A stretch of DNA of 64,000 bases. Origin: Deltaproteobacteria bacterium. GTDB taxonomy: Bacteria; Myxococcota_A; Polyangia; Polyangiales; Houyiibacteriaceae. Location of the stretch: assembly GCA_034670305.1 (NCBI GenBank), contig JAXMNT010000010.1, forward strand, positions 126,885 through 190,884, written 5' to 3'. The notes beneath the pieces were generated by a model. That model saw nothing but the letters and a program-made list of their open reading frames with translations. It was not told the DNA's origin and searched no databases. This document shows, piece after piece, positions 39,311-54,202 of the stretch (position 1 is its first letter; every line of letters begins with the position of its first letter). A program made the position numbers and the translations under genes.

Positions 39311-40135
39311 CTACAGGTCCGGCCGCCCGCCCTTCCACCCGAGCGCCCACCCCATCGTGTACCGCGCGTTCACTTCGGAACGCAGGTTCCACGCCTTCGC
39401 CCCGCCGTACCGGAACGCGTCCACCCCGAACGGTCCCCAGTAGCCGTGATCGAGAAGCGCCCGCCCCACCACCTCGACCTCGCGCTTCAGCTCGTCGACT
39501 GGAAGTGCGTCGTTTCGGGTCGCGGCCCGCGACTCGACCCACTTGCCGCCTTCCACCCGCTGAACAACCGGCCCGCCCACCTCGACGCGACCTTCCGCGT
39601 GCACAAATCCTGGTGTGCCGACCTCGAGATCGATGTCGACGAACGGCTCGAGTTGGTAGCCGCCGTGGTCCCGCACCGACGCGTCCAGCCACGCGAGGTC
39701 CGCATCGGACAGACCCCCTGCTCCGACCCGCAACCGTCGTTGACCCCGTCCGACGAAGCTCATCGGTCGCTTCGCGATCCAGGACCCATCGGCCAAAGCC
39801 GACGGGTGCGGCGGGGCGTGGACGAAACGCGCGCCCTCGAGCAGCGACTCGAAACACGCGCGGTGGTTCACCCGGCGCAGCGTGGTTTCGTCTGGCGCCG
39901 GCGCGGCCACGAGTCCCGCCTCTCGGACCTGTCTGAGCGCAACCGTCGTGGGACACCAAAGCCGTGCAGGCTGACCTTCGTAGCGCCGGTCTGGCGCCAT
40001 CCGTTCGTCCCCGGCCGGAACGAGCATCGGCGCGACCTTGCCCGCCGCCTTGCGTGCGGCGACGACACCGCGAAGCGGCGCCGCGCGCCCTGCCAGTTCG
40101 AACTCGGCCAGCAAGTTCAAGTACCAGATCCGCAT
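39311..40135 (-). CDS. ATP-grasp-like hypothetical protein
   Basis: WIAKRP...[29 protein letters not shown]. Confidence 0.6.
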
Positions 40136-40139
40136 CGAC

Positions 40140-40934
40140 TCAGAGGTCCGGCTGCCACGCGTCGAGCGCGCGAATGAACGCCGCGCTCAGCCCGGCCGCG
40201 GACCGGCGCTTTTCGTGGAGTGGGCGACCGCGCATCACCATGGGCGACAGGGGCTCGGGAAGTTCCGCGACCCAGCGGTCGAACTCGAGCGGGCCGCCGA
40301 AGTGGTGGAACCATGTCACCGCGAAGCGGACGTGCGCGACCTCTTCGACACCGACTTGGTCTTGCACCTCGGCCCCGACCTCGTCCCCGACGGCACGGAA
40401 CCGCTCCGCGAACCGAGCGGCGTGTTCGAGGTTGCCGCCCTCGAATCCGATGCCGAGGCACGCGACGAACTGAAGCGGCGTCTCGCAGGAAGGCACGCGC
40501 TCCCAGAACCAGTCGCGCACCGGAAAGTCACCGAAGGCGTATCCGAGCGTCTGCATGTGTCGCTCGTACATCGCCATGTGCCGGAGCTCGTCCTGCATCA
40601 CCGCGAGCAGTCCCGCGCGAAAGTCTGCCGGGGTGTCCGGAAACGCGAGGATGGCCCAGGCCATCAGCTCGGCGGCTTGCAGTTCGTGGTGCAGGAAACG
40701 GTGGAGGATGCGGGCGCGCGCTTCGGGCGAACGCAGCGAGCGCGGCATGCGCGGCGCTCGGTCGACGATCTCGAGTTCCGGCGGGCGACCGGGGCGTTCG
40801 ATGCGCGTTGCGGCGCGGTCGCGCTGCCAGGTCGTGGGCGGCGGCGGTGGGCAGAGCTTCGTCGCGAGCACGTCGGTGCCGATGTAGGCCTCCGCCCATG
40901 CTTCGACGGTCTCTTGGCTGGTCGCGCGGTTCAC
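40140..40934 (-). CDS. Ferritin-like di-iron protein (DUF455-like)
   Basis: HHELQA, DELRH, FEGGNLE, EEVAHV ligand spacing; GTG start inferred. Confidence 0.75.
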
Positions 40935-41001
40935 CAGGACGGTGTGCCATGGACGGAGGGGGATATCGAATCGGGAGGGAGGTGGGGACCCTTGACGTTC
41001 T

Positions 41002-41329
<328 letters not shown>

Positions 41330-41330
41330 T

Positions 41331-42650
41331 TCAGCTCAGGGCGGAGAGCCGGTCGAGGAAGGATTGGCCCTTCTTCGGATCGCACATGTAGACGTAGGCG
41401 GCCCAGCCGCGGAGGACGTCCAGGCTCTCGCCCCGGCCGGGACGACCGTTCTCGCGGTTGTGGATGGCGGCGCGCAGCTCGCGGACGAGCTTGCGCGGCA
41501 CGCGCGCGGTCGGTGCGCCGTCGGGGCTCGACTTCTCGAGCGCGTTGACGACGAGGCCGGTCACCTTCTGTCGGCGGCCGCTGCGCATGACGCGGGTCTT
41601 GTACGGGTGGACCCGGAAACCTTCGTCGGTGCAGATGCGCGCGACCGCTTTGCTCAGGCGTCCAACGGGCGCCTTGTCTTTGTCCGACGAGAACGTGAGG
41701 TCGTCCGCGTAGCGGGTGTAGGTCAGGCCGAGGGTGCGGGCGAGGCCGGCCAGCCGCGCATCGAGCCGCAGACACAGGGCGTTGGTGATCGAGGGGCTCG
41801 TCGGCGCGCCCTGCGGCAGGGACCGGTCGCCCGTCGCGACGAAGTGTTTGCGACCGCGCAGCATCATCTCTTCACGCGGCGACTCGGTGCACAGGAGCGC
41901 GAGCAAGAGCGCGGTCTGTTCGCCGTAGCCAGCTTTGCGGAAGAGTCCCTTCACCCGGCCGGTGGTGATCGTCGGGTAGAAGTCGCTGAGATCGAACTTG
42001 ATGATCGTCTTGCCGCCGGCGTGCGCCTCGGCGTTCGTCTTGGTGCTGCGTCCGCGGACGAACCCGTGGGCCGCACCGTGAACCGGCAGCCGCTCGCTGA
42101 TGTTCAATGCGATCCACTTCTGGGCGCCCATCAGGATCGGCTTTGGTGCGCTGATGAGGCGCTGCCCGCCGGTACGCTTCGGAATGTGCCAACGGCGGTA
42201 GTGGGTGCCGGTGTCGACTTCGCGGTGAAAACACAACCAGCGCAGCTGGCTGATCGTCAGTCCCAGCGCTTCGCCGAGGGCGTGCTGGTCTTTGATCGGC
42301 GGGAGGTCGTTCTGCTCGCGGCGCGCCTCGATCTCGGCGATGTCGTACTTGTCGACGTCGGCGGTGTCGTGGTGCCAGAACCCGACCCCGACATGCACGA
42401 GGTGGTTCTTCTTGTACTCGGCCCAACCGTGGGCCTTGAGCAGCTTGCGCACGCGTCGCTCTTCTTCGCGGCGCGCCTTGTAGCGTTTGCGTTCGGTCTT
42501 GCTCAGGCGCGATGTGTCGACGCCTTCGTCCAAGAGGTCGCGTCGGCGGAGCTCGGCGAGGACCCAGGGCTGGACGCCGCCGGCCTCCTTGATGTCGGCC
42601 CACCGTGCGACCGGCGCCTCCGCCGGATCGGTCTTCGTCTCGTCGCTCAT
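41331..42650 (-). CDS. ret: Retron reverse transcriptase, myxobacterial Mx162/Sa163-like
   Basis: [22 protein letters not shown] (region X NAxxH), [38 protein letters not shown] (region Y VTG); long N-terminal extension. Confidence 0.96.
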
Positions 42651-42817
42651 TGGGACAACCCGCTCGCCAAATCCAGCACTGAATGAAGGGGACTCGAGCC
42701 GAAGCGCGAAGACTCAGTGCGCCATCGCACCGGTGCTTCGACCTCATCTCGGCGGCACCCGCGCGAACGATGCAAGAGGGCATCGGTGCGGGCACTCGAG
42801 AACGAAGAAGAAAAGAT

Positions 42818-43069
42818 GAGAGGGGAGGTGGAGCGCCACCTTCTTACCTGGGACACGGTAGGCTCACCGGTTGGCCCGGGGGAGGGGGTATCCCCGCCCC
42901 CCCTAAACCGCGGTTGCGTGGTTGGCCCAGCTAGGGGGGGCGGGGATACCCCCTCCCCCGAGGCCAACCAAGAACAGCCTACCTTGTGGAGCATTGAGGA
43001 ATGTTTTGCCTGGACGGCGCGACGCCGCCCTCGTGACGAGCACGGGCTGACACTCCACTCTCCCCTCTC
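42818..43069 (-). ncRNA. Retron msr-msd non-coding RNA
   Basis: Inverted repeats at 43048-43069 and 42818-42838; UCAG*CC branch context (G = complement of 43047); msr stem-loops CUCG-UCA-CGAG and GGGCGGCG-UCG-CGCCGUCC; msd stem 42869-42905/42932-42969. Confidence 0.92.
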
Positions 43070-43179
43070 GAAGTTTCTCCTCGGACCGGCAGCGCCGGTC
43101 TGGTTGTGATCGCTTCCGAAGAAGCGAAGACGTTCGCTGCGGACGCTATCGGTCCTGCAGGTTTGGATCAAGAACGAAC

Positions 43180-44991
43180 TCACGCGTCACCCCGCGTGGC
43201 GTCCAGAAATCCTTTTTGAGCACACCGATCGAGTCGGCGGAAGTACTCCTCACGCGCCTCGTCCGCGGACGAGAAGAAGAGTTTCTGCACCCGTTCGACC
43301 GTCGCACCCGGTCCACCGCGCAGGATCACCATCCGGTCGTCGAGGGACACTCGGAGCGTCGACGACCCGGTGCGTTCGCGTCGCACGAGTGTGCGGGTCT
43401 CGGCGCGGATGAGCTTGCGGCCTTCTTCGGTCTCGCGGGCGCGCTCGAGTTCGGTCTTCTGACGTGCGTAGAGCAGCCGCAGTGCGATCATCGGCGCGCT
43501 CGGTCCTTCGCGCAGGCCAGATCGTCGAAACTGAGGACTCGTGCACGAGGCGTCCACAGTCCGGCCTTCGCGGTCGAGCGTGAACGCGGTCTCGTAGCTG
43601 CGGTGGGCTGTGGCGTCTTCGACGCGGCCTTCGATGCGGGTGCCGTCGCTCCCGAGGTCGTGCACCTTCGTGAGCTGCACCGCACCTTCGGTGTCGAGCA
43701 ACCGGTGCGCCTCCGCTTCACGGGCGTCGCGGAACCGGAGCTTCGTCTCGTCGAGCGGGGTGACGAAGAGCGGCCGCGCGCGCACGGTGCCGGTCGCCGC
43801 GTCGAAGAGGATCTGTCCGCGCTGCATCAACACGAGGGTGCTGGCCCGCACCGCGCCGACATCGGCGCCGACGTTCTTTGCGAGCGCGTCGAAGCCGATG
43901 GGGGACGTCGCGGCCGCGAGCACCTTGGCGTCGAGGGCGGCATCGCGCGAGTGCGCCACCAGCAGGTCAAAGGTCGTGATGCCGGCCCAGCCGCGGTCGG
44001 TCCAGCCGCTGAGTGCCAAGGTCAGGGTCATGCCGTCGAGATCGACGATGTAGTAGGTCGGCAGCCCGGCGCCGGACAAACGCACCCGGACCGACTTCGC
44101 GTACGGCAGAAGCGGTGCGAGCACCCCGAGGCGGCGGCGTCCCCAGGTGCGCACCACGTTCGGCCGCGCGCCTTCGAACGTACCGGCGTTGCCCTCGAGC
44201 ACTCGGTCCCAGGGTTCGAGCACGAGCCGCGGCGCGTCGCCGGGGACGAGCTCGAAGCGGAGCGACCTCGGCGGCTTCTTCGACCGGTGCATGCGCAGGG
44301 TCAGCAGCACGTTGTAGATGTCGATGGGCGCGAGCGGGCAATCGTCCGCGGGCAAGGTCGCCGCGGCCTGCACCTGAGAGAGCGCACGGGACCAGCGGTT
44401 GGGCACGTGGCGGTCGGCCGGTTCGGCCTGGCCCGGCTCGAGCACCAACACCGTCTCGCGGTACGCGCGGATGTCGTCGAGTGCGCGCACCGCCGCGGCG
44501 TCGAGGCCGATGTGTGTGGTGCCCGCCGAGACGGTCGCGTCGGAGTAGCAGTCGGGTCCCACGTGCAGGTGCGCGTAGCTGGACTCGTCGGCGCTGAACA
44601 CTTCCAGCCGAAGTCCGTCCTCGCCGATGGTCAGGAGCGGGTCGAGCGGGCCCTCGGCGCGCGTCTCGGGGGGCGCGAACTCGGCTTCCAGGAACCGCTT
44701 CTGGGCTTCCCAGAGTTCCTTGGTGGCTTTGCGGCCCTGCTTGAGCAGGAACGCGAGGTAGTCCGATCGGTCCGACGCTTTGCGCCGCATGTCGGAGGCC
44801 CTGACTTCCGCCATGGTGGCCAGCACCGCGCGCAGCACGTCGGGCCGTTTGAACGTTCCGCGGAACTTCGCCTCCGAACGTTCGGCATCGGTCGGGAGCG
44901 TGAGCGTGAGTCGCTCGCCCTCTCGCACCGGCTTGGGTGCCGACGCGAGTCGTGTGCGGACGGCCGCGAAATCGTCTTGGGTGTCGCTCAC
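43180..44991 (-). CDS. Retron-associated protein with degenerate SWIM-like and WGR-like C-terminal domains
   Basis: LEVFSADESSY; ASCTS...GPSAPMIAL (SWIM-like spacing); C-terminal LRGGP...FSSADEAREEY...KGF (WGR-like); GTGA overlap with the upstream gene. Confidence 0.7.
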   Translation of the reverse strand: MSDTQDDFAAVRTRLASAPKPVREGERLTLTLPTDAERSEAKFRGTFKRPDVLRAVLATMAEVRASDMRRKASDRSDYLAFLLKQGRKATKELWEAQKRFLEAEFAPPETRAEGPLDPLLTIGEDGLRLEVFSADESSYAHLHVGPDCYSDATVSAGTTHIGLDAAAVRALDDIRAYRETVLVLEPGQAEPADRHVPNRWSRALSQVQAAATLPADDCPLAPIDIYNVLLTLRMHRSKKPPRSLRFELVPGDAPRLVLEPWDRVLEGNAGTFEGARPNVVRTWGRRRLGVLAPLLPYAKSVRVRLSGAGLPTYYIVDLDGMTLTLALSGWTDRGWAGITTFDLLVAHSRDAALDAKVLAAATSPIGFDALAKNVGADVGAVRASTLVLMQRGQILFDAATGTVRARPLFVTPLDETKLRFRDAREAEAHRLLDTEGAVQLTKVHDLGSDGTRIEGRVEDATAHRSYETAFTLDREGRTVDASCTSPQFRRSGLREGPSAPMIALRLLYARQKTELERARETEEGRKLIRAETRTLVRRERTGSSTLRVSLDDRMVILRGGPGATVERVQKLFFSSADEAREEYFRRLDRCAQKGFLDATRGDA

Positions 44992-50900: not shown

Positions 50901-51476
50901 CAAGACCGCGCCGACCCCTTCGGGCGTCGGCATCCGGCGGGGCGTGGCGCCCAGGTCAGCGGCTGGTACGACCACCACTTCGCTGGCGTCGCCACCGACC
51001 ACGATGCGTTCCCCGCGCGCGTCGAATGCCACACACAGAAGCGGTCGCGCCCCGAGCGAGAGTTCGCCGGCGGGCGACAGGGTGCCGCCTTCGAGGGTCC
51101 AGACCTTGAGGGCTCCGTCGTCGCCCACACTCGCGACCTGGTTCCCGAAGGTCGCGATGCCGCGCACCGCGCCACCGTGTGCGGCGACCGCCGCTCCGAA
51201 CGTCTGCGCGCCGATCTGGGCGACGTGCAGCTCTCCTCGTTCGTTGCCGATGAGTGCGACGTCGTCGGTGGCGCATGCGAGGGCAGTCGTCGGATGCGGC
51301 ATCGCCAGCGCGCCGGCGGCTTTGAGCTCCGGCACGACGAGAATGTGTACGCTCGAGAGCGCGCGCGCCGCGTCGTCCGCGTCGACTTCCCGTCGCCCGC
51401 CGATGAGTACGTGGCCGCCGGCCGGAGTCGATGCGACCGCCTCGAGGCGTTCGATGTGGGGTCCAAACGTGGTCAC
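44988..51476 (-). CDS. Retron-associated giant WD40 + HEAT/ARM-repeat protein (~2160 aa)
   Basis: N-terminal HGGAVRGI...SVGDDGALKVW and RDAALRVWD; many LxD.d..VR.aA..aL repeats; GTG at 51476 overlaps the upstream TGA. Confidence 0.85.
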   Translation of the reverse strand: MTTFGPHIERLEAVASTPAGGHVLIGGRREVDADDAARALSSVHILVVPELKAAGALAMPHPTTALACATDDVALIGNERGELHVAQIGAQTFGAAVAAHGGAVRGIATFGNQVASVGDDGALKVWTLEGGTLSPAGELSLGARPLLCVAFDARGERIVVGGDASEVVVVPAADLGATPRRMPTPEGVGAVLTTDDGRVVAGCLDGSLHVGYLEGAPEFEHRSKGIDHERAIVGIVRGPALLDDVGRALPRRLYTVARDAALRVWDLDSRKRPKTHELGGDPSAMAWVAAAPNAASQTGGLVVVGRTRRVDAIALEPDATVGQARQVKSRLAELAKAAKASAEKARKAALDTIGGLPEDDARRLLDRSLTSDGAPAMRGHAAVLIGRSARRASRPALRTALGDKNAGVRKAALDALTSIERDRPLAVAQAALASPAPDMRIVALARLPMLRKASPLVPGLIAQRLKDGDSKVRLAALDALVSLDGPESIEPARTAFARGEADVKREALYKLARARLALTTGAEIVEAALDDESSDVRQAAVSVAIGCRAPLVSALSSNEVLMKQLAAAQAEGAFPQETIPLEKAKEPLFAMLACRNVGSAIAGASALATLRDERATGAILQLSRNPQASVRRIAIGVALQAIRQGVGLAALRGRLEWLLADDDDGARTAAFDALEGLAGKDGSARLDLSEIALRCPHPAVRRRGLQLLVAFGGEGEYAGDSELGARADNWLGHALDDEDAKTRDEAFRTLWAWHSASPEPALSRASRARHPDLRGKIVDELLRLRKAATEEQPAEAWVEDLLVELASDSSFDVARKAYEGLLALEVTRVDLHAAALRSSSEKVLALACSKLPPSAFLELRPTVLQLIEDERSAVHLAAIRCFDRLKPGDEVAFTTAFGSVFYELRVRAIELCAARRDRRCVEPARRLLTLPLEDPRRPVAPHRQRLAQALANTGVTGLIPFFITLLQDTDPLVAEQAARGMATAVLPGGEGHLVDWLSHESIAVRSWLAEGLARLGDPRGLPVLIGTLQHDHRPIRLGAIMGFAALGPEGARGLLMALDDQDREIQELVFGVVVARDQALAKKALAADLLSSAMSSSHPEIRFAAARLLEERGQDGTHERTRELIGPRRPQRAADMKNWPEEAQQEALLRVVVEALASDDPPLRYAATQLLALRPQAETFWREAARLQGPRALGQIRIPHTTWSAETRAPRKKSWMHSLVRAAGTAATDQEVAPLVFGVYAGLVRQAPAAGAADETHRIRRDALGRVEALAPVVGRDATVPVLRRGLSDPHHLVRKAASTALKALHPGGPGGDPTPYRLMFQSDAPDVGRGAVDELVALATDANAPDAAAKALVVEALEASHAEVRAHALARLPSLYESGSLEPWLLALGSRFSDVRLQVVDRLVASTGGGADDARISEALGRAMESEHVDLQLKAATTLAFRGDPRTVGVLAGLLRNERAQVVTAAQNALVALARKQPDGDAPLRDEIAQALVARFTDDPDGTANKPGLLKSIGDVRSLEARPLLLTLLTEENGDLWSQAMTAARAIATGASEKLPNGTLRLRFNEAWLHPLLDAARRSVVAKVRKEVIAPLQHFEDASADATLSALTEDRDEEVRVGAIRALAFRAEKLDRPAARDALAAALRIGRRELVLPAAVALAESADPSRTRQVADSVLQSLLLVLKAGLPTERPKAVLALGALGDVRALDELQLLAHPPDDADPEDRMLIGDGTEALARLLKNGDLTSEVAAPIREYIDRTALQGTSLLRSRAMIGLGYIADEAARTLLERVLGDPHDDSTARVQAARLLGQLANKASEQALADAMLSPDWQVRKIARESLTKIFPEDATRVALHALQSPFHDLNSEAAAYLAREGDAATLLSRLADIDSPHIRQRLRAGLLRRGLAPVDALRTLLRGEKHGPREDAAWMAGEKGDGSLAPDVAQAAAKALADAGETSHVRTEARAALTAALWAAERLGSDVTDTARKALDLNETRVTEVARRVLLERLDARELAGWLDTAAPPDRALAARAIVRRFPDQVASVLTSLHAPDPTVALILAAALDLSATFEQPKVRRAALPPLLARGEDTLIAKSKTGDEATRLVALSALGRGGGEAAQAALEALLTEDAKESETIRKAAFKSLRRVQRRLERDARFEESTETGS

Positions 51477-54202
51477 GCGCGTGCCTCCGCGTCGGTGGGT
51501 TCGAGCGAGAGCTGCGATGCGAGCGAGGGGTGCGCCCGGCGAATCCGTGCGAGCGCCGCCACACAGGCGTGCCACTCACCCTTGGCTTCCGAGTGGGCGA
51601 ACGAGGTCAGCGGGGCAGCGGCGAGGGCTGCGAACTCGGCGTTCTCCATGGCGAGGTCGCGCACCACTTCGATCAGCCGGCGCTTGGCCACACTGGCGGG
51701 GATCGGGCGCTGCTTGAGGGCGTCGTCGCCGCGGCGTTCCATGCGTCCCGGCGGCAGCCCGAAGAGAATGCGTCGCACGAAAAGCTCCAGCGCGGCGCGA
51801 TCTTCGAACTCCTCGTTGCGACGGCTCCAGAGCAGACGCACCGCGAAGATGCGCACGTCCCGCTCCGAACTCTCCATCAGCCACACCAGCCGCGCGGTGC
51901 TTCCGATCGCGGCGTAGTGGGTGAGGATCACATCGAGCGCCGCTTCGCGGGTCGACTTGTGGCGGCTCTCCGCGAGCTCGAACATCAACGCTCCGTCGAG
52001 CCATTCGATCGGCACCGCGTCGACCGGCCGCCAGGCGTCTTCGCGACCCGACGCGAGCGAGCCGGCGTCGCGGGCTTCCCCGATGGCGCGCAGTACGCTC
52101 GTACCGAACCGGCGGGCTTCGGGTTTCGGCGCGCCGGAAAGTCGGTACGCGAGCTTCGGCTCGTTCCAGACAACGATCTCTTGTTTGGCCACGGCGACGG
52201 CGAACCGTCGAAGCTCGGGCAACGCGTCGCGGAAGACCGGAGTCACCCGCGCGGCCGTGTACGATTCACGCGCCAGACGCGGCGCCACGCCGAGCTGGCG
52301 CGCGGACTCGGTCTTCGGCCCGAGCACCGGGTGGTGCAGGGTCAGGTAGTTCGCGGCGAACTGGCGAACCGCATCCGGCTCGGTCGGGGCGAGCAGCGAC
52401 CAGATCTTCTCTTCTCCGGCCGCTTCGTTGCCGCCTGCGAAGTCCGCCGGCGCAAAATGCTGCAGCAGGTAGCGCTGTGCGAACTGCGCGATCTGGGCAT
52501 CCGACTGACGCGACATCGAGAGCAGCCAGGCGAATCCCACGCGGTGTGGTTCGACGAACTTGGTCAGCACCGTGAACGCCATGTTGCGGGTGCTGGCCCG
52601 GTTCACGAGGCCCTTGAGCCAGTCGACGTCGAGCGCGGCGCCCTTGAGTTTGCCCGCGGTCAGCCACCGCTGCACTTCGGACGCGAAACGCCGGTCGTGC
52701 ACGCCCTGCATCACCCACGCCGCGCCGATCTCCTCGATCGGGCGCTTGCCCAGCTCACCTCGCAAGACGTTGTTGATCTGCCACTGGTTGAAGCCATCGC
52801 TCTCGACGAGTGCGATCAGGTGGCTGGTCGGTGGCTCGGTCTTCGTCTCCTGGTACCACTTGGCGAGGAAGTTCTCTTGCCCGCCGCGACGCAGCTGGAT
52901 GTACTGCGCTTCGGTCAACGCGGTCGGCGCGAACGCCTCTTTGAGCTTGGTCTGCGCCAGGTTCTTGAGCGACCCGATCTTCAGCATGCGCAACAGCCGC
53001 TCGAGACCGAGCTGCGTCGCGGAACGTTTCTCGAGCCGCTCGACCGCGAACTTGGTGGCGGGCGGCAGGGGCGCCTGCGCGACTTCCAGCAGCGCGTCGT
53101 CGTCGAGGTCGGGCGCATGCGCTTGCGCGTACTCCACCGCGTAGAGACACGCGTCCAGGAGCGTGGACCGAAGAAGTGAGAGCACCAGATCGTGCAGGCC
53201 CGCGGCCTTGAGTTTCGACTGGTGGAAGTCGGGGTTCGCCTTGAGGGTCTCGACCACGAACTGATGCAGGCGCGCTTGAGGGCGGCTTCCGAGCCGCACC
53301 AGCCAGGCCACATCGGGTGAACGGAGCTCGTCGGGGAAGTCCTGCTGCAGGCTCCGAATCGCGAAGTCGAGGACCTCGTCTTGCTGGCCGTCTTCGAGCA
53401 AACGCAGGAGCGGCTCGGGGGTGACCTTCCACGCTTCGTCGAACGCGCGGCGCGAGAGATCCTGGGGCGGCTTGGTGATCCAGGAGCTGGTGACGTACTT
53501 GAGGTCTTCGTGGGCCCACATCTGCGGGAGCACCCACGTGCCCCAGAGGTTGTTGCCCCGGTAGTGGCGCATCACCTGGACCGCGTAGTTCGGGTAGGCC
53601 TCCGGCACCGAAGCGCCGAGGTGCCGCAAGAACCGCCACGCCCGACGACGCAAGTACGCGTAGGTCGCGCCACCGACTTCGTTGTTCTGCTTGGTCTGAT
53701 AGATCTGATCGAAGCGCCACGCGAAGAGCCCGAACAGCTCTGCATCGAACCGGGCCTCGGCGCGTTTGTAGAGCTTCTTCAGCCCGCGCCAGATCCCCCA
53801 CGAGATGCGGACGTCGCGCACGATCTGCAGCAGCTGCGCCCGCGCGTACGCGTCGCCGGCTTCCGCGCGGTCGTCGAGGTCGAGCACGAAGGGCCCGAGC
53901 CGCAGACGCGGCGGTGGGTGGTCGATGTCCTCGAGCTGCCGCCAAGCGTTCTGCCGAATCGCTTTCTTCTGCTCGTCCGTCTTGCCGTAGAGCGACCATT
54001 TGCCGAGCGCGGTCCGGACCTTCTGCAGGTTCCAGGCATCGGACGGTGGTCTCGGTACAGGCTTCTGCGGATCGTGATCCTCGGGCACGCCGTTGGGCGG
54101 GTCCGGTTGTTCGGCGTACGCGCAGACGAGCTCGGCCAGTCGTGGGTCAGAGGACTCGAGCGCCCGCTCCAGGTCCTCGAAGTAGTGCAGGCGGTCCCCC
54201 AT
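51473..54202 (-). CDS. Retron-associated large alpha-helical protein (909 aa)
   Basis: First gene of the coupled operon; YLRRRAWRFLR motif; helical-repeat character. Confidence 0.75.
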   Translation of the reverse strand: MGDRLHYFEDLERALESSDPRLAELVCAYAEQPDPPNGVPEDHDPQKPVPRPPSDAWNLQKVRTALGKWSLYGKTDEQKKAIRQNAWRQLEDIDHPPPRLRLGPFVLDLDDRAEAGDAYARAQLLQIVRDVRISWGIWRGLKKLYKRAEARFDAELFGLFAWRFDQIYQTKQNNEVGGATYAYLRRRAWRFLRHLGASVPEAYPNYAVQVMRHYRGNNLWGTWVLPQMWAHEDLKYVTSSWITKPPQDLSRRAFDEAWKVTPEPLLRLLEDGQQDEVLDFAIRSLQQDFPDELRSPDVAWLVRLGSRPQARLHQFVVETLKANPDFHQSKLKAAGLHDLVLSLLRSTLLDACLYAVEYAQAHAPDLDDDALLEVAQAPLPPATKFAVERLEKRSATQLGLERLLRMLKIGSLKNLAQTKLKEAFAPTALTEAQYIQLRRGGQENFLAKWYQETKTEPPTSHLIALVESDGFNQWQINNVLRGELGKRPIEEIGAAWVMQGVHDRRFASEVQRWLTAGKLKGAALDVDWLKGLVNRASTRNMAFTVLTKFVEPHRVGFAWLLSMSRQSDAQIAQFAQRYLLQHFAPADFAGGNEAAGEEKIWSLLAPTEPDAVRQFAANYLTLHHPVLGPKTESARQLGVAPRLARESYTAARVTPVFRDALPELRRFAVAVAKQEIVVWNEPKLAYRLSGAPKPEARRFGTSVLRAIGEARDAGSLASGREDAWRPVDAVPIEWLDGALMFELAESRHKSTREAALDVILTHYAAIGSTARLVWLMESSERDVRIFAVRLLWSRRNEEFEDRAALELFVRRILFGLPPGRMERRGDDALKQRPIPASVAKRRLIEVVRDLAMENAEFAALAAAPLTSFAHSEAKGEWHACVAALARIRRAHPSLASQLSLEPTDAEARA

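Follow-up and report, generated by a model that had tools for sequence, protein, structure and literature searches.

The window, by which we mean the whole stretch of 64,000 nucleotides that was analysed, very probably carries a complete and apparently functional type XIII retron msr-msd in a Myxococcota genome. Five co-oriented parts were found on its minus strand, namely two HEAT/ARM genes, a SWIM gene, the ncRNA and a reverse transcriptase (RT) gene, in this order. The locus is a genuine but ordinary further example of the long-known Mx162-class retrons, which were the first retrons to be discovered. The features of the ncRNA, and of the DNA predicted from it, are as follows:

42818..43069, minus strand: msr-msd ncRNA unit from a1 to a2, 252 nt (fold z-score, covariance model and covariation)
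43048..43069, minus strand: a1 repeat, the 5' arm of the closing stem, 22 nt
43047, minus strand: predicted branching G (2'-OH primer), in UCAGCC, the first unpaired base past a1
43044-43032, minus strand: msr hairpin SL1, 4 bp (RNAfold centroid)
43030-43012, minus strand: msr hairpin SL2, 8 bp (RNAfold centroid)
42853..42987, minus strand: msd hairpin (inverted-repeat search and DNA fold)
42853-42864 / 42976-42987, minus strand: msd outer stem, 12 nt at 92%
42869-42905 / 42932-42969, minus strand: msd long stem, 37 bp with A42961 bulged
42906-42931, minus strand: msd loop, 26 nt
42818..42838, minus strand: a2 repeat, the 3' arm of the closing stem, 21 nt
42839..43001, plus strand: predicted msDNA, about 155-165 nt (a2 boundary and Mx162 geometry)

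An earlier reading of the letters alone (the sequence-only reading) had claimed an intact msr-msd at this place, and this was borne out: all the structural hallmarks were present, and an intact retron-type RT gene lay 167 nt downstream. Read from 5' to 3', the unit consists of a1, G43047, SL1, SL2, a linker, the msd hairpin, 14 nt ending in GG, and a2. The two closing arms form 21 pairs across 209 nt, with one bulged A and two G-U pairs, and the pairing stops immediately 5' of G43047. RNAfold returned the same a1/a2 pairing, reaching the branch G as had been claimed, and the two msr stem-loops that were said to follow this G were seen in the centroid fold. The outer stem and the 37-bp, one-bulge stem around a 26-nt loop were likewise recovered where that reading had placed them, the outer stem including the segments GGTAGGCT / AGCCTACC that it had named. 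The core of the long stem is a perfect 29-nt inverted repeat (42877-42905 / 42932-42960) with its arms 26 nt apart, and this gains 8 bp (42869-42876 / 42962-42969) past the bulged A42961 to make up the 37-bp stem. When the 252-nt RNA was folded, its energy was -179.2 kcal/mol, compared to -114.2 ± 5.4 kcal/mol for shuffled sequences (z = -12.05; none of the 200 shuffles as good), and no helix of the fold was broken. The plus-strand candidate for a 162-nt msDNA, folded as DNA, gave z = -10.3.

The four protein genes of the operon are:

51473..54202, minus strand: first HEAT/ARM (WGR-like) accessory gene, 909 aa
44988..51575, minus strand: second HEAT/ARM repeat gene, 2195 aa as listed
43180..44991, minus strand: SWIM-family gene, 603 aa
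41331..42650, minus strand: retron reverse transcriptase, 439 aa

Over residues 8-895, the 909-aa protein matched the PADLOC profile HEAT-ARM_XIII PDLC02921 with 759 bits; it also matched WGR_XIII (126 bits), and gave no match at all in Pfam. For the 2195-aa protein, the score with HEAT-ARM_XIII PDLC02919 was 1053 bits and the E-value with Pfam HEAT_2 was 1e-59, while its N terminus showed weak matches to beta-propellers (Pfam). Since this open reading frame overlaps the preceding gene by about 100 nt, its true start may lie further downstream. The start of the SWIM gene overlaps the stop of the HEAT/ARM gene before it by 4 nt. The SWIM protein matched SWIM_XIII over residues 17-511 (447 bits, E 1.9e-134), and a Pfam search of it gave no SWIM match. 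A string that agrees with the published DEDE pattern at residues 414-495 of this protein could have arisen by chance and was set aside. The RT matched RT_XIII of PADLOC with 504 bits (E 1e-151), the next best profile reaching 310 bits. Pfam RVT_1 was placed at residues 156-366 of the RT, leaving an N-terminal extension of about 150 aa, and the motifs NAEAH (NAxxH), YADD and VTG were found at 206, 314 and 363, respectively.

The neighbours of the operon are housekeeping genes (DUF455, MgtE, TerC, GluRS and a glycosyltransferase) and not a defence island. Vertical inheritance has been reported for myxobacterial retrons (Mestre 2020, PMC7736814), and the housekeeping flanks fit such an inheritance of the retron. 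The DUF455 open reading frame (40140-41219, minus strand), just downstream of the RT gene, has runs of SA/SV dipeptides in its N-terminal part; on the strand opposite to it, RS repeats occur over 40038-42686, as a simple-sequence tract. A promoter scan of 41200-43400 gave no sigma-70-like site, such a scan being uninformative for a high-GC myxobacterium. A U-rich tract was seen just 3' of a2 (42817-42803, minus strand), where a T-rich tract is also present in four relatives (L002, L008, L009 and L010), and a terminator-like hairpin with a T-rich tail at 43181-43198 overlaps the SWIM stop codon. Either of these could set the ratio of the ncRNA to the RT or SWIM transcript.

Type XIII is defined by an RT of clade 10, a cluster-114 (SWIM) protein and HEAT/ARM genes, and Table 1 of the same source gives Mx162, Mx65, Sa163 and Ne144 as validated members (Mestre 2020, PMC7736814). 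The locus has an RT_XIII, a SWIM_XIII and two HEAT-ARM_XIII genes, and lacks the CxCx12CxH zinc motif. The traits common to retrons are also there: the a1/a2 pair, a priming G in AGC, msr hairpins with an msd stem, and an RT with YADD, NAxxH and VTG. The same ncRNA fold was found beside RT_XIII genes at seven other loci (L002, L008, L010, L011, L005, L006 and L037). The CAGC context of the branch site is that given for Mx162 and Sa163 (Simon 2019, PMC6868368). The label 'Mx162-like' used in the sequence-only reading thus holds at the level of the class, by way of the RT, SWIM and HEAT/ARM profiles together with the CAGC context.

Among the best 120 RT matches, the nearest named relatives were from Polyangiaceae (75% identity) and from Plesiocystis, Enhygromyxa and Haliangium (64-66%), with further named matches in Pseudenhygromyxa, Nannocystaceae and Sandaracinaceae; no Myxococcus RT was named among these 120. 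Because the nearest named RTs are not those of Myxococcus, we read the locus as a relative of Mx162 rather than as an orthologue within Myxococcus. The RT family is very large, 7067 of the 8000 candidate proteins scored having E ≤ 1e-30. In a set of 14 named control genomes, it matched only Escherichia coli, Bacteroides thetaiotaomicron and Methanosarcina acetivorans. The source genome has three RT_XIII genes in all, and a single full msr-msd copy. The other two RT genes (L005, G000 C67:18286-19701; L006, G000 C23:86088-87257) belong to further type XIII retrons. The proteins they encode share 44-46% identity with the RT of the window and score about 500 bits on RT_XIII, and in both retrons the order is a SWIM homologue, a diverged ncRNA (51 and 47 bits, respectively, with the covariance model R1 described below) and then the RT.

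Homologues of the ncRNA were collected by several routes. An RT-based scan of species-representative genomes gave three uncultured relatives. The msr-msd of L002 was 87% identical to the window copy. When 401 genomes of the phylum were searched at the DNA level, 13 loci besides that of the window came up, of which five (L008, L020, L009, L010 and L011) were kept. Seven loci (L013-L019) were dropped as GC-rich matches of 31-45 nt without the msd anchors; L012, which matched the loop region over 47 nt at the end of a contig, was dropped as well. Seven sequences were aligned by MAFFT without reference to structure (alignment A1). RNAalifold gave the same fold on A1, with compensatory double changes in 56 of the 88 pairs; 95.6% of the cells were paired, compared to 73.2% on shuffling (0 of 500 shuffles as high) and 42-45% for slid controls. 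A covariance model, which the sequence-only reading had proposed as a check, was built from A1 (R1), and the fold was found to covary in the homologues. R1 scored the msr-msd of the window at 268.6 bits on the minus strand and 61.4 bits on the reverse strand, the latter because the msd is palindromic.

When 150 other genomes of the phylum were searched with R1, 12 further full-length copies were found in 10 of them, and one R1-matched locus had a third tandem copy. The resulting alignment, A3, holds 20 sequences from 16 genomes, i.e., the window and 19 copies from 15 other Myxococcota genomes. In A3, 94.1% of the cells were paired (65.4% on shuffling, with 0 of 500 as high; slid controls, 41-44%), and double changes occurred in 70 of the 88 pairs. 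The figures for A3 overstate independence, because this alignment was fitted to R1 and contains related sequences; R1 had no part in the result from the MAFFT alignment. Double changes were seen over the 20 sequences in all 17 modelled pairs of the a1/a2 helix, in all five pairs of SL1 and in all 29 pairs of the long stem, where pairing was 98.4%; SL2 was 96% paired. AGC was present at the branch site in 18 of the 20 sequences, and the G that faces this site, immediately 5' of a2, in 19.

Conservation was unevenly spread along the unit. Over the 20 sequences, the mean column identity was 0.90 and 0.91 for the two outer-stem blocks, 0.88 for the second msr hairpin and 0.77 for the msd loop; it was 0.48 and 0.49 for the arms of the long stem, 0.41 for a1 and 0.38 for a2. 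The sequence-only reading had held that the ends and the loop are conserved while the long stem is replaced, and this is true across the family of 20 sequences. Its view that both the structure and the loop sequence are under selection is supported by the covariation of 29 of 29 long-stem pairs and by the identity of the loop as against that of the arms. A compensatory change in the outer stem, also claimed there, exists in the family as G-C to C-G, in L011 and L023 (2 of the 20 sequences).

The helices differed in their content of G-U pairs. An RNA helix tolerates such pairs, whereas each of them turns into an A-C mismatch once the strand is copied into its DNA complement. Of the 537 standard pairs in the a1/a2 and msr helices, 45 were G-U; the msd helices had 12 among 1058, and the outer stem, the 29-bp long stem and the loop helix were free of them. 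This amounts to an odds ratio of about 8 (Fisher p about 1e-12, with related sequences treated as independent). Such a scarcity is expected if the msd must fold both as template RNA and as cDNA, and the contrast indirectly supports the view that reverse transcription does take place in the family.

The locus was also looked for in public sequencing runs. Fifteen runs were found, as contigs only, which show no depth, ends or strand, and four of them were compared over 1.2 kb. A DNA contig from another study (X5) covers all of the 1.2 kb and is about 95% identical to it; the perfect hairpin is therefore not an artefact of assembly. None of the 40 listed differences of X5 falls in 42779-43089, which is suggestive only. 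In the RNA-library run X10, a 181-nt contig was identical to 42844-43024, covering the msd and part of the msr, and in the RNA-library run X7 a contig (42949-43261) extended from the msd through the msr and on into the SWIM gene at its 3' end. Because RNA libraries can contain DNA, these contigs hint only weakly at the presence of the region among natural transcripts or msDNA. A second contig of X10 (42850-42991) has the same msd flanks around a diverged 89-nt centre, and represents a relative, from the same sample, whose stem is different.

The SWIM protein raises the question of decay. At residues 483-503, where the zinc motif CxCx12CxH is expected, it has C483-T-S...S-A-P, so that three of the four zinc ligands are lost, and an effector altered in this way may work differently or not at all. 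A relic that was inherited vertically with its sequence intact, and in which msDNA is no longer made or the effector side is dead, would account for the degenerate motif, for the lack of any promoter-like site in the scan and for the housekeeping flanks in place of a defence island. We consider it very unlikely. All five parts of the operon are full length with respect to their profiles, the catalytic and retron-specific motifs of the RT are intact, and the ncRNA is without a broken helix; the RNA-library contigs add their weak hint. Moreover, the degenerate SWIM motif is kept, along with the residues around it, in L002, L008, L003 and one of the two L036 (G111) copies, and its retention in four relatives argues against decay. 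The canonical CxCx12CxH was found in L010, L011, L035, the other L036 (G111) copy and L006.

We return to the reading of the locus as a functional retron, for which the course of msDNA synthesis may be proposed from retron biochemistry. The minus-strand transcript would fold such that the a1/a2 pairing sets the 2'-OH of G43047 next to the template. The RT would probably bind the msr, for which the conserved second hairpin, GGGCGGCG-loop-CGCCGUCC, is the obvious candidate site, and would prime from the 2'-OH of G43047. Copying of the msd would then proceed to a point some 50 nt 3' of the branch G, with RNase H removing the copied template. What is expected to remain is a hairpin of plus-strand DNA, about 160 nt long, with a 2'-5' link to about 70 nt of RNA.

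Since the template begins directly 5' of a2, the 5' end of the msDNA should be plus-strand 42839 or 42840. The best estimate for the 3' end, placed by analogy with Mx162 alone, is near 42995-43003. For Mx162, a transcript of 241 nt, trimmed by 16 nt at the 5' side, with a 162-nt msd and an overlap of 8 bases has been described (Simon 2019, PMC6868368); the equivalent length from a1 to the template is 231 nt at this locus, and the spacing of the branch G, the second msr hairpin, the outer stem and a2 is near constant over the 20 homologues. From this geometry, the 231-nt length and the near-constant spacing, the product is predicted to be about 155-165 nt long and to end near 42995-43003. The span 42840-43001 put forward in the sequence-only reading falls inside this range, and is, by the same analogy, a reasonable prediction.

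Some retrons of E. coli have their msDNA cleaved from the RNA. We give a very small chance to the msDNA of the present locus being made in a mature form clearly unlike the predicted 160-nt branched molecule, through another stop site or through such a cleavage. Both ends of the msDNA are placed by analogy alone, and processing after synthesis varies among retrons (Simon 2019, PMC6868368); the near-constant distances between blocks over the 20 homologues, on the other hand, fit a conserved geometry.

There is next to no chance that the hairpin is some other palindromic element (a repeat, a terminator or an attenuator) lying upstream of the RT by accident, as Rfam's sub-threshold miRNA-type matches, the lack of a retron family among them and the R1 score of the reverse strand of the msd might suggest, because conservation and covariation are seen in the a1/a2 pairing over 209 nt, in the AGC branch site, in the msr hairpins and in the asymmetry between the strands, and the genome has a single full copy. 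The Rfam search gave no retron family at E ≤ 1, and its miRNA-precursor matches, which fit the perfect hairpin with scores under the gathering thresholds, were rejected as hairpin mimicry.

As to function, a full-text literature search did not find experimental work on that of type XIII retrons. By analogy with other retron types, the msDNA-RT complex, the SWIM protein and the HEAT/ARM proteins might together form a tripartite phage-sensing system, a proposal to which we give roughly equal chances of being right or wrong. The housekeeping context, together with the vertical inheritance noted by Mestre 2020, leaves room for a role other than defence.

The locus was compared with known systems. 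Like Retron-Mxa1 (Mx162, Myxococcus xanthus) and Retron-Sau1 (Sa163, Stigmatella aurantiaca), it is type XIII by its protein profiles, and shares with them the branch G in CAGC, an N-terminally extended RT (described for both in Simon 2019, PMC6868368) and a long msd from which an msDNA of about 160 nt is predicted. Its setting is likewise chromosomal and non-prophage, consistent with vertical inheritance. Unlike these two, it belongs to a different host lineage and has lost the zinc ligands of the SWIM protein, the likeness being one of class, by profiles; its length from a1 to the template also differs from that of Mx162 (231 nt against the 241 nt quoted). Retron-Nex2 (Ne144, Nannocystis exedens) is type XIII as well, from a host group closer to the nearest named RT relatives of the window. 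Retron-Nex1 (Ne160) has repeated msr-msd copies and no RT within a kilobase (Simon 2019, PMC6868368), and these resemble, by description, the unlinked and tandem copies in relatives of the window. In contrast to the retrons of Nannocystis exedens, the ncRNA of the window is single and lies between the SWIM gene and the RT. Retron-Eco1 (Ec86), of type II-A, has in common with the locus the a1/a2 pair, the branching G, the msr hairpins, the msd hairpin and an RT with NAxxH, YADD and VTG. It differs in that its RT is of another clade, its effector is not a SWIM or HEAT/ARM protein, its msDNA is much shorter, and it is borne on a prophage, whereas the present locus is flanked by housekeeping genes.

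The locus is as expected for a myxobacterium, and the current understanding of these retrons is unchanged by it. As a clean and complete five-part example of type XIII, it offers comparative material, as do the alignment with its 19 homologues, the covariance model and the difference between helices that pair as RNA alone and those that pair as both RNA and DNA. The dataset helps to define what the RT recognizes, namely the conserved second msr hairpin, and what may be read by an effector, namely the msd loop and ends, which are conserved. For genome editing, retrons whose long stem can be replaced are useful scaffolds.

Copies of the ncRNA in relatives were not always linked to an operon. An RT and a SWIM gene were present within 1.5 kb of four of the 19 non-window copies (L002, L008, L010 and L011), and absent beside the other 15. 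Unlinked copies (L009, L020/L038, L023-L028, L030-L032, L034 and L029/L039) were found in 12 genomes (G292, G235, G110, G101, G050, G106, G116, G086, G096, G146, G111 and G141). Five genomes were checked, all of them with unlinked copies. In four (G106, G111, G141 and G292), the RT genes lay on other contigs; in G235, one copy was more than 1 Mb away from any RT gene and the other adjoined an RT. All of a1, the branch AGC and a2 are retained in the unlinked copies, whose neighbours are unrelated housekeeping genes. As the whole unit from a1 to a2 is present, they are genes and not retro-copies of msDNA.

The operons closest to that of the window, in L035 (G106 C13) and L036 (G111 C79), have the order HEAT/ARM-SWIM-RT, the end of the SWIM gene abutting the start of the RT, so that an ncRNA would not fit between them. 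When R1 was run with its filters off beside the RTs of these orthologous operons, no ncRNA was found in L035, and in L036 the match was only upstream of a second, paralogous RT. From these searches, the ncRNA for the two operons appears to act in trans from another locus. Three tandem msr-msd units, with R1 scores of 112, 120 and 80 bits, were found in G141 (L039 3293-4184 on C234, the same as L029 1121-2012). They differ in the sequence of their long stems, and no RT is nearby.

One reading of the replaced stems and of the multiplied genes is that the central long stem of the msd is a strain-specific barcode, held strictly to Watson-Crick pairing because it acts as DNA, and that one machine reads several msDNA variants from unlinked, multiplied ncRNA genes. 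We regard this as unlikely. If it were true, the stem would be a swappable specificity module and not a spacer, and the window would represent the linked, single-variant state.

Other arrangements were also observed. In L003, the order is SWIM-RT-msr, with the ncRNA at 2757-2923, downstream of the RT. In L001, a contig of 1.6 kb, the RT has the 3' half of an msd (1-144) before it and the 5' half of an msr-msd (1519-1639) after it; such an arrangement could come from two copies, from a tandem array or from a break of the assembly at the hairpin. Finally, one of the unlinked msr-msd copies of G111 has an IS605 OrfB / TnpB-like gene (L034 146-1285) immediately upstream of it.
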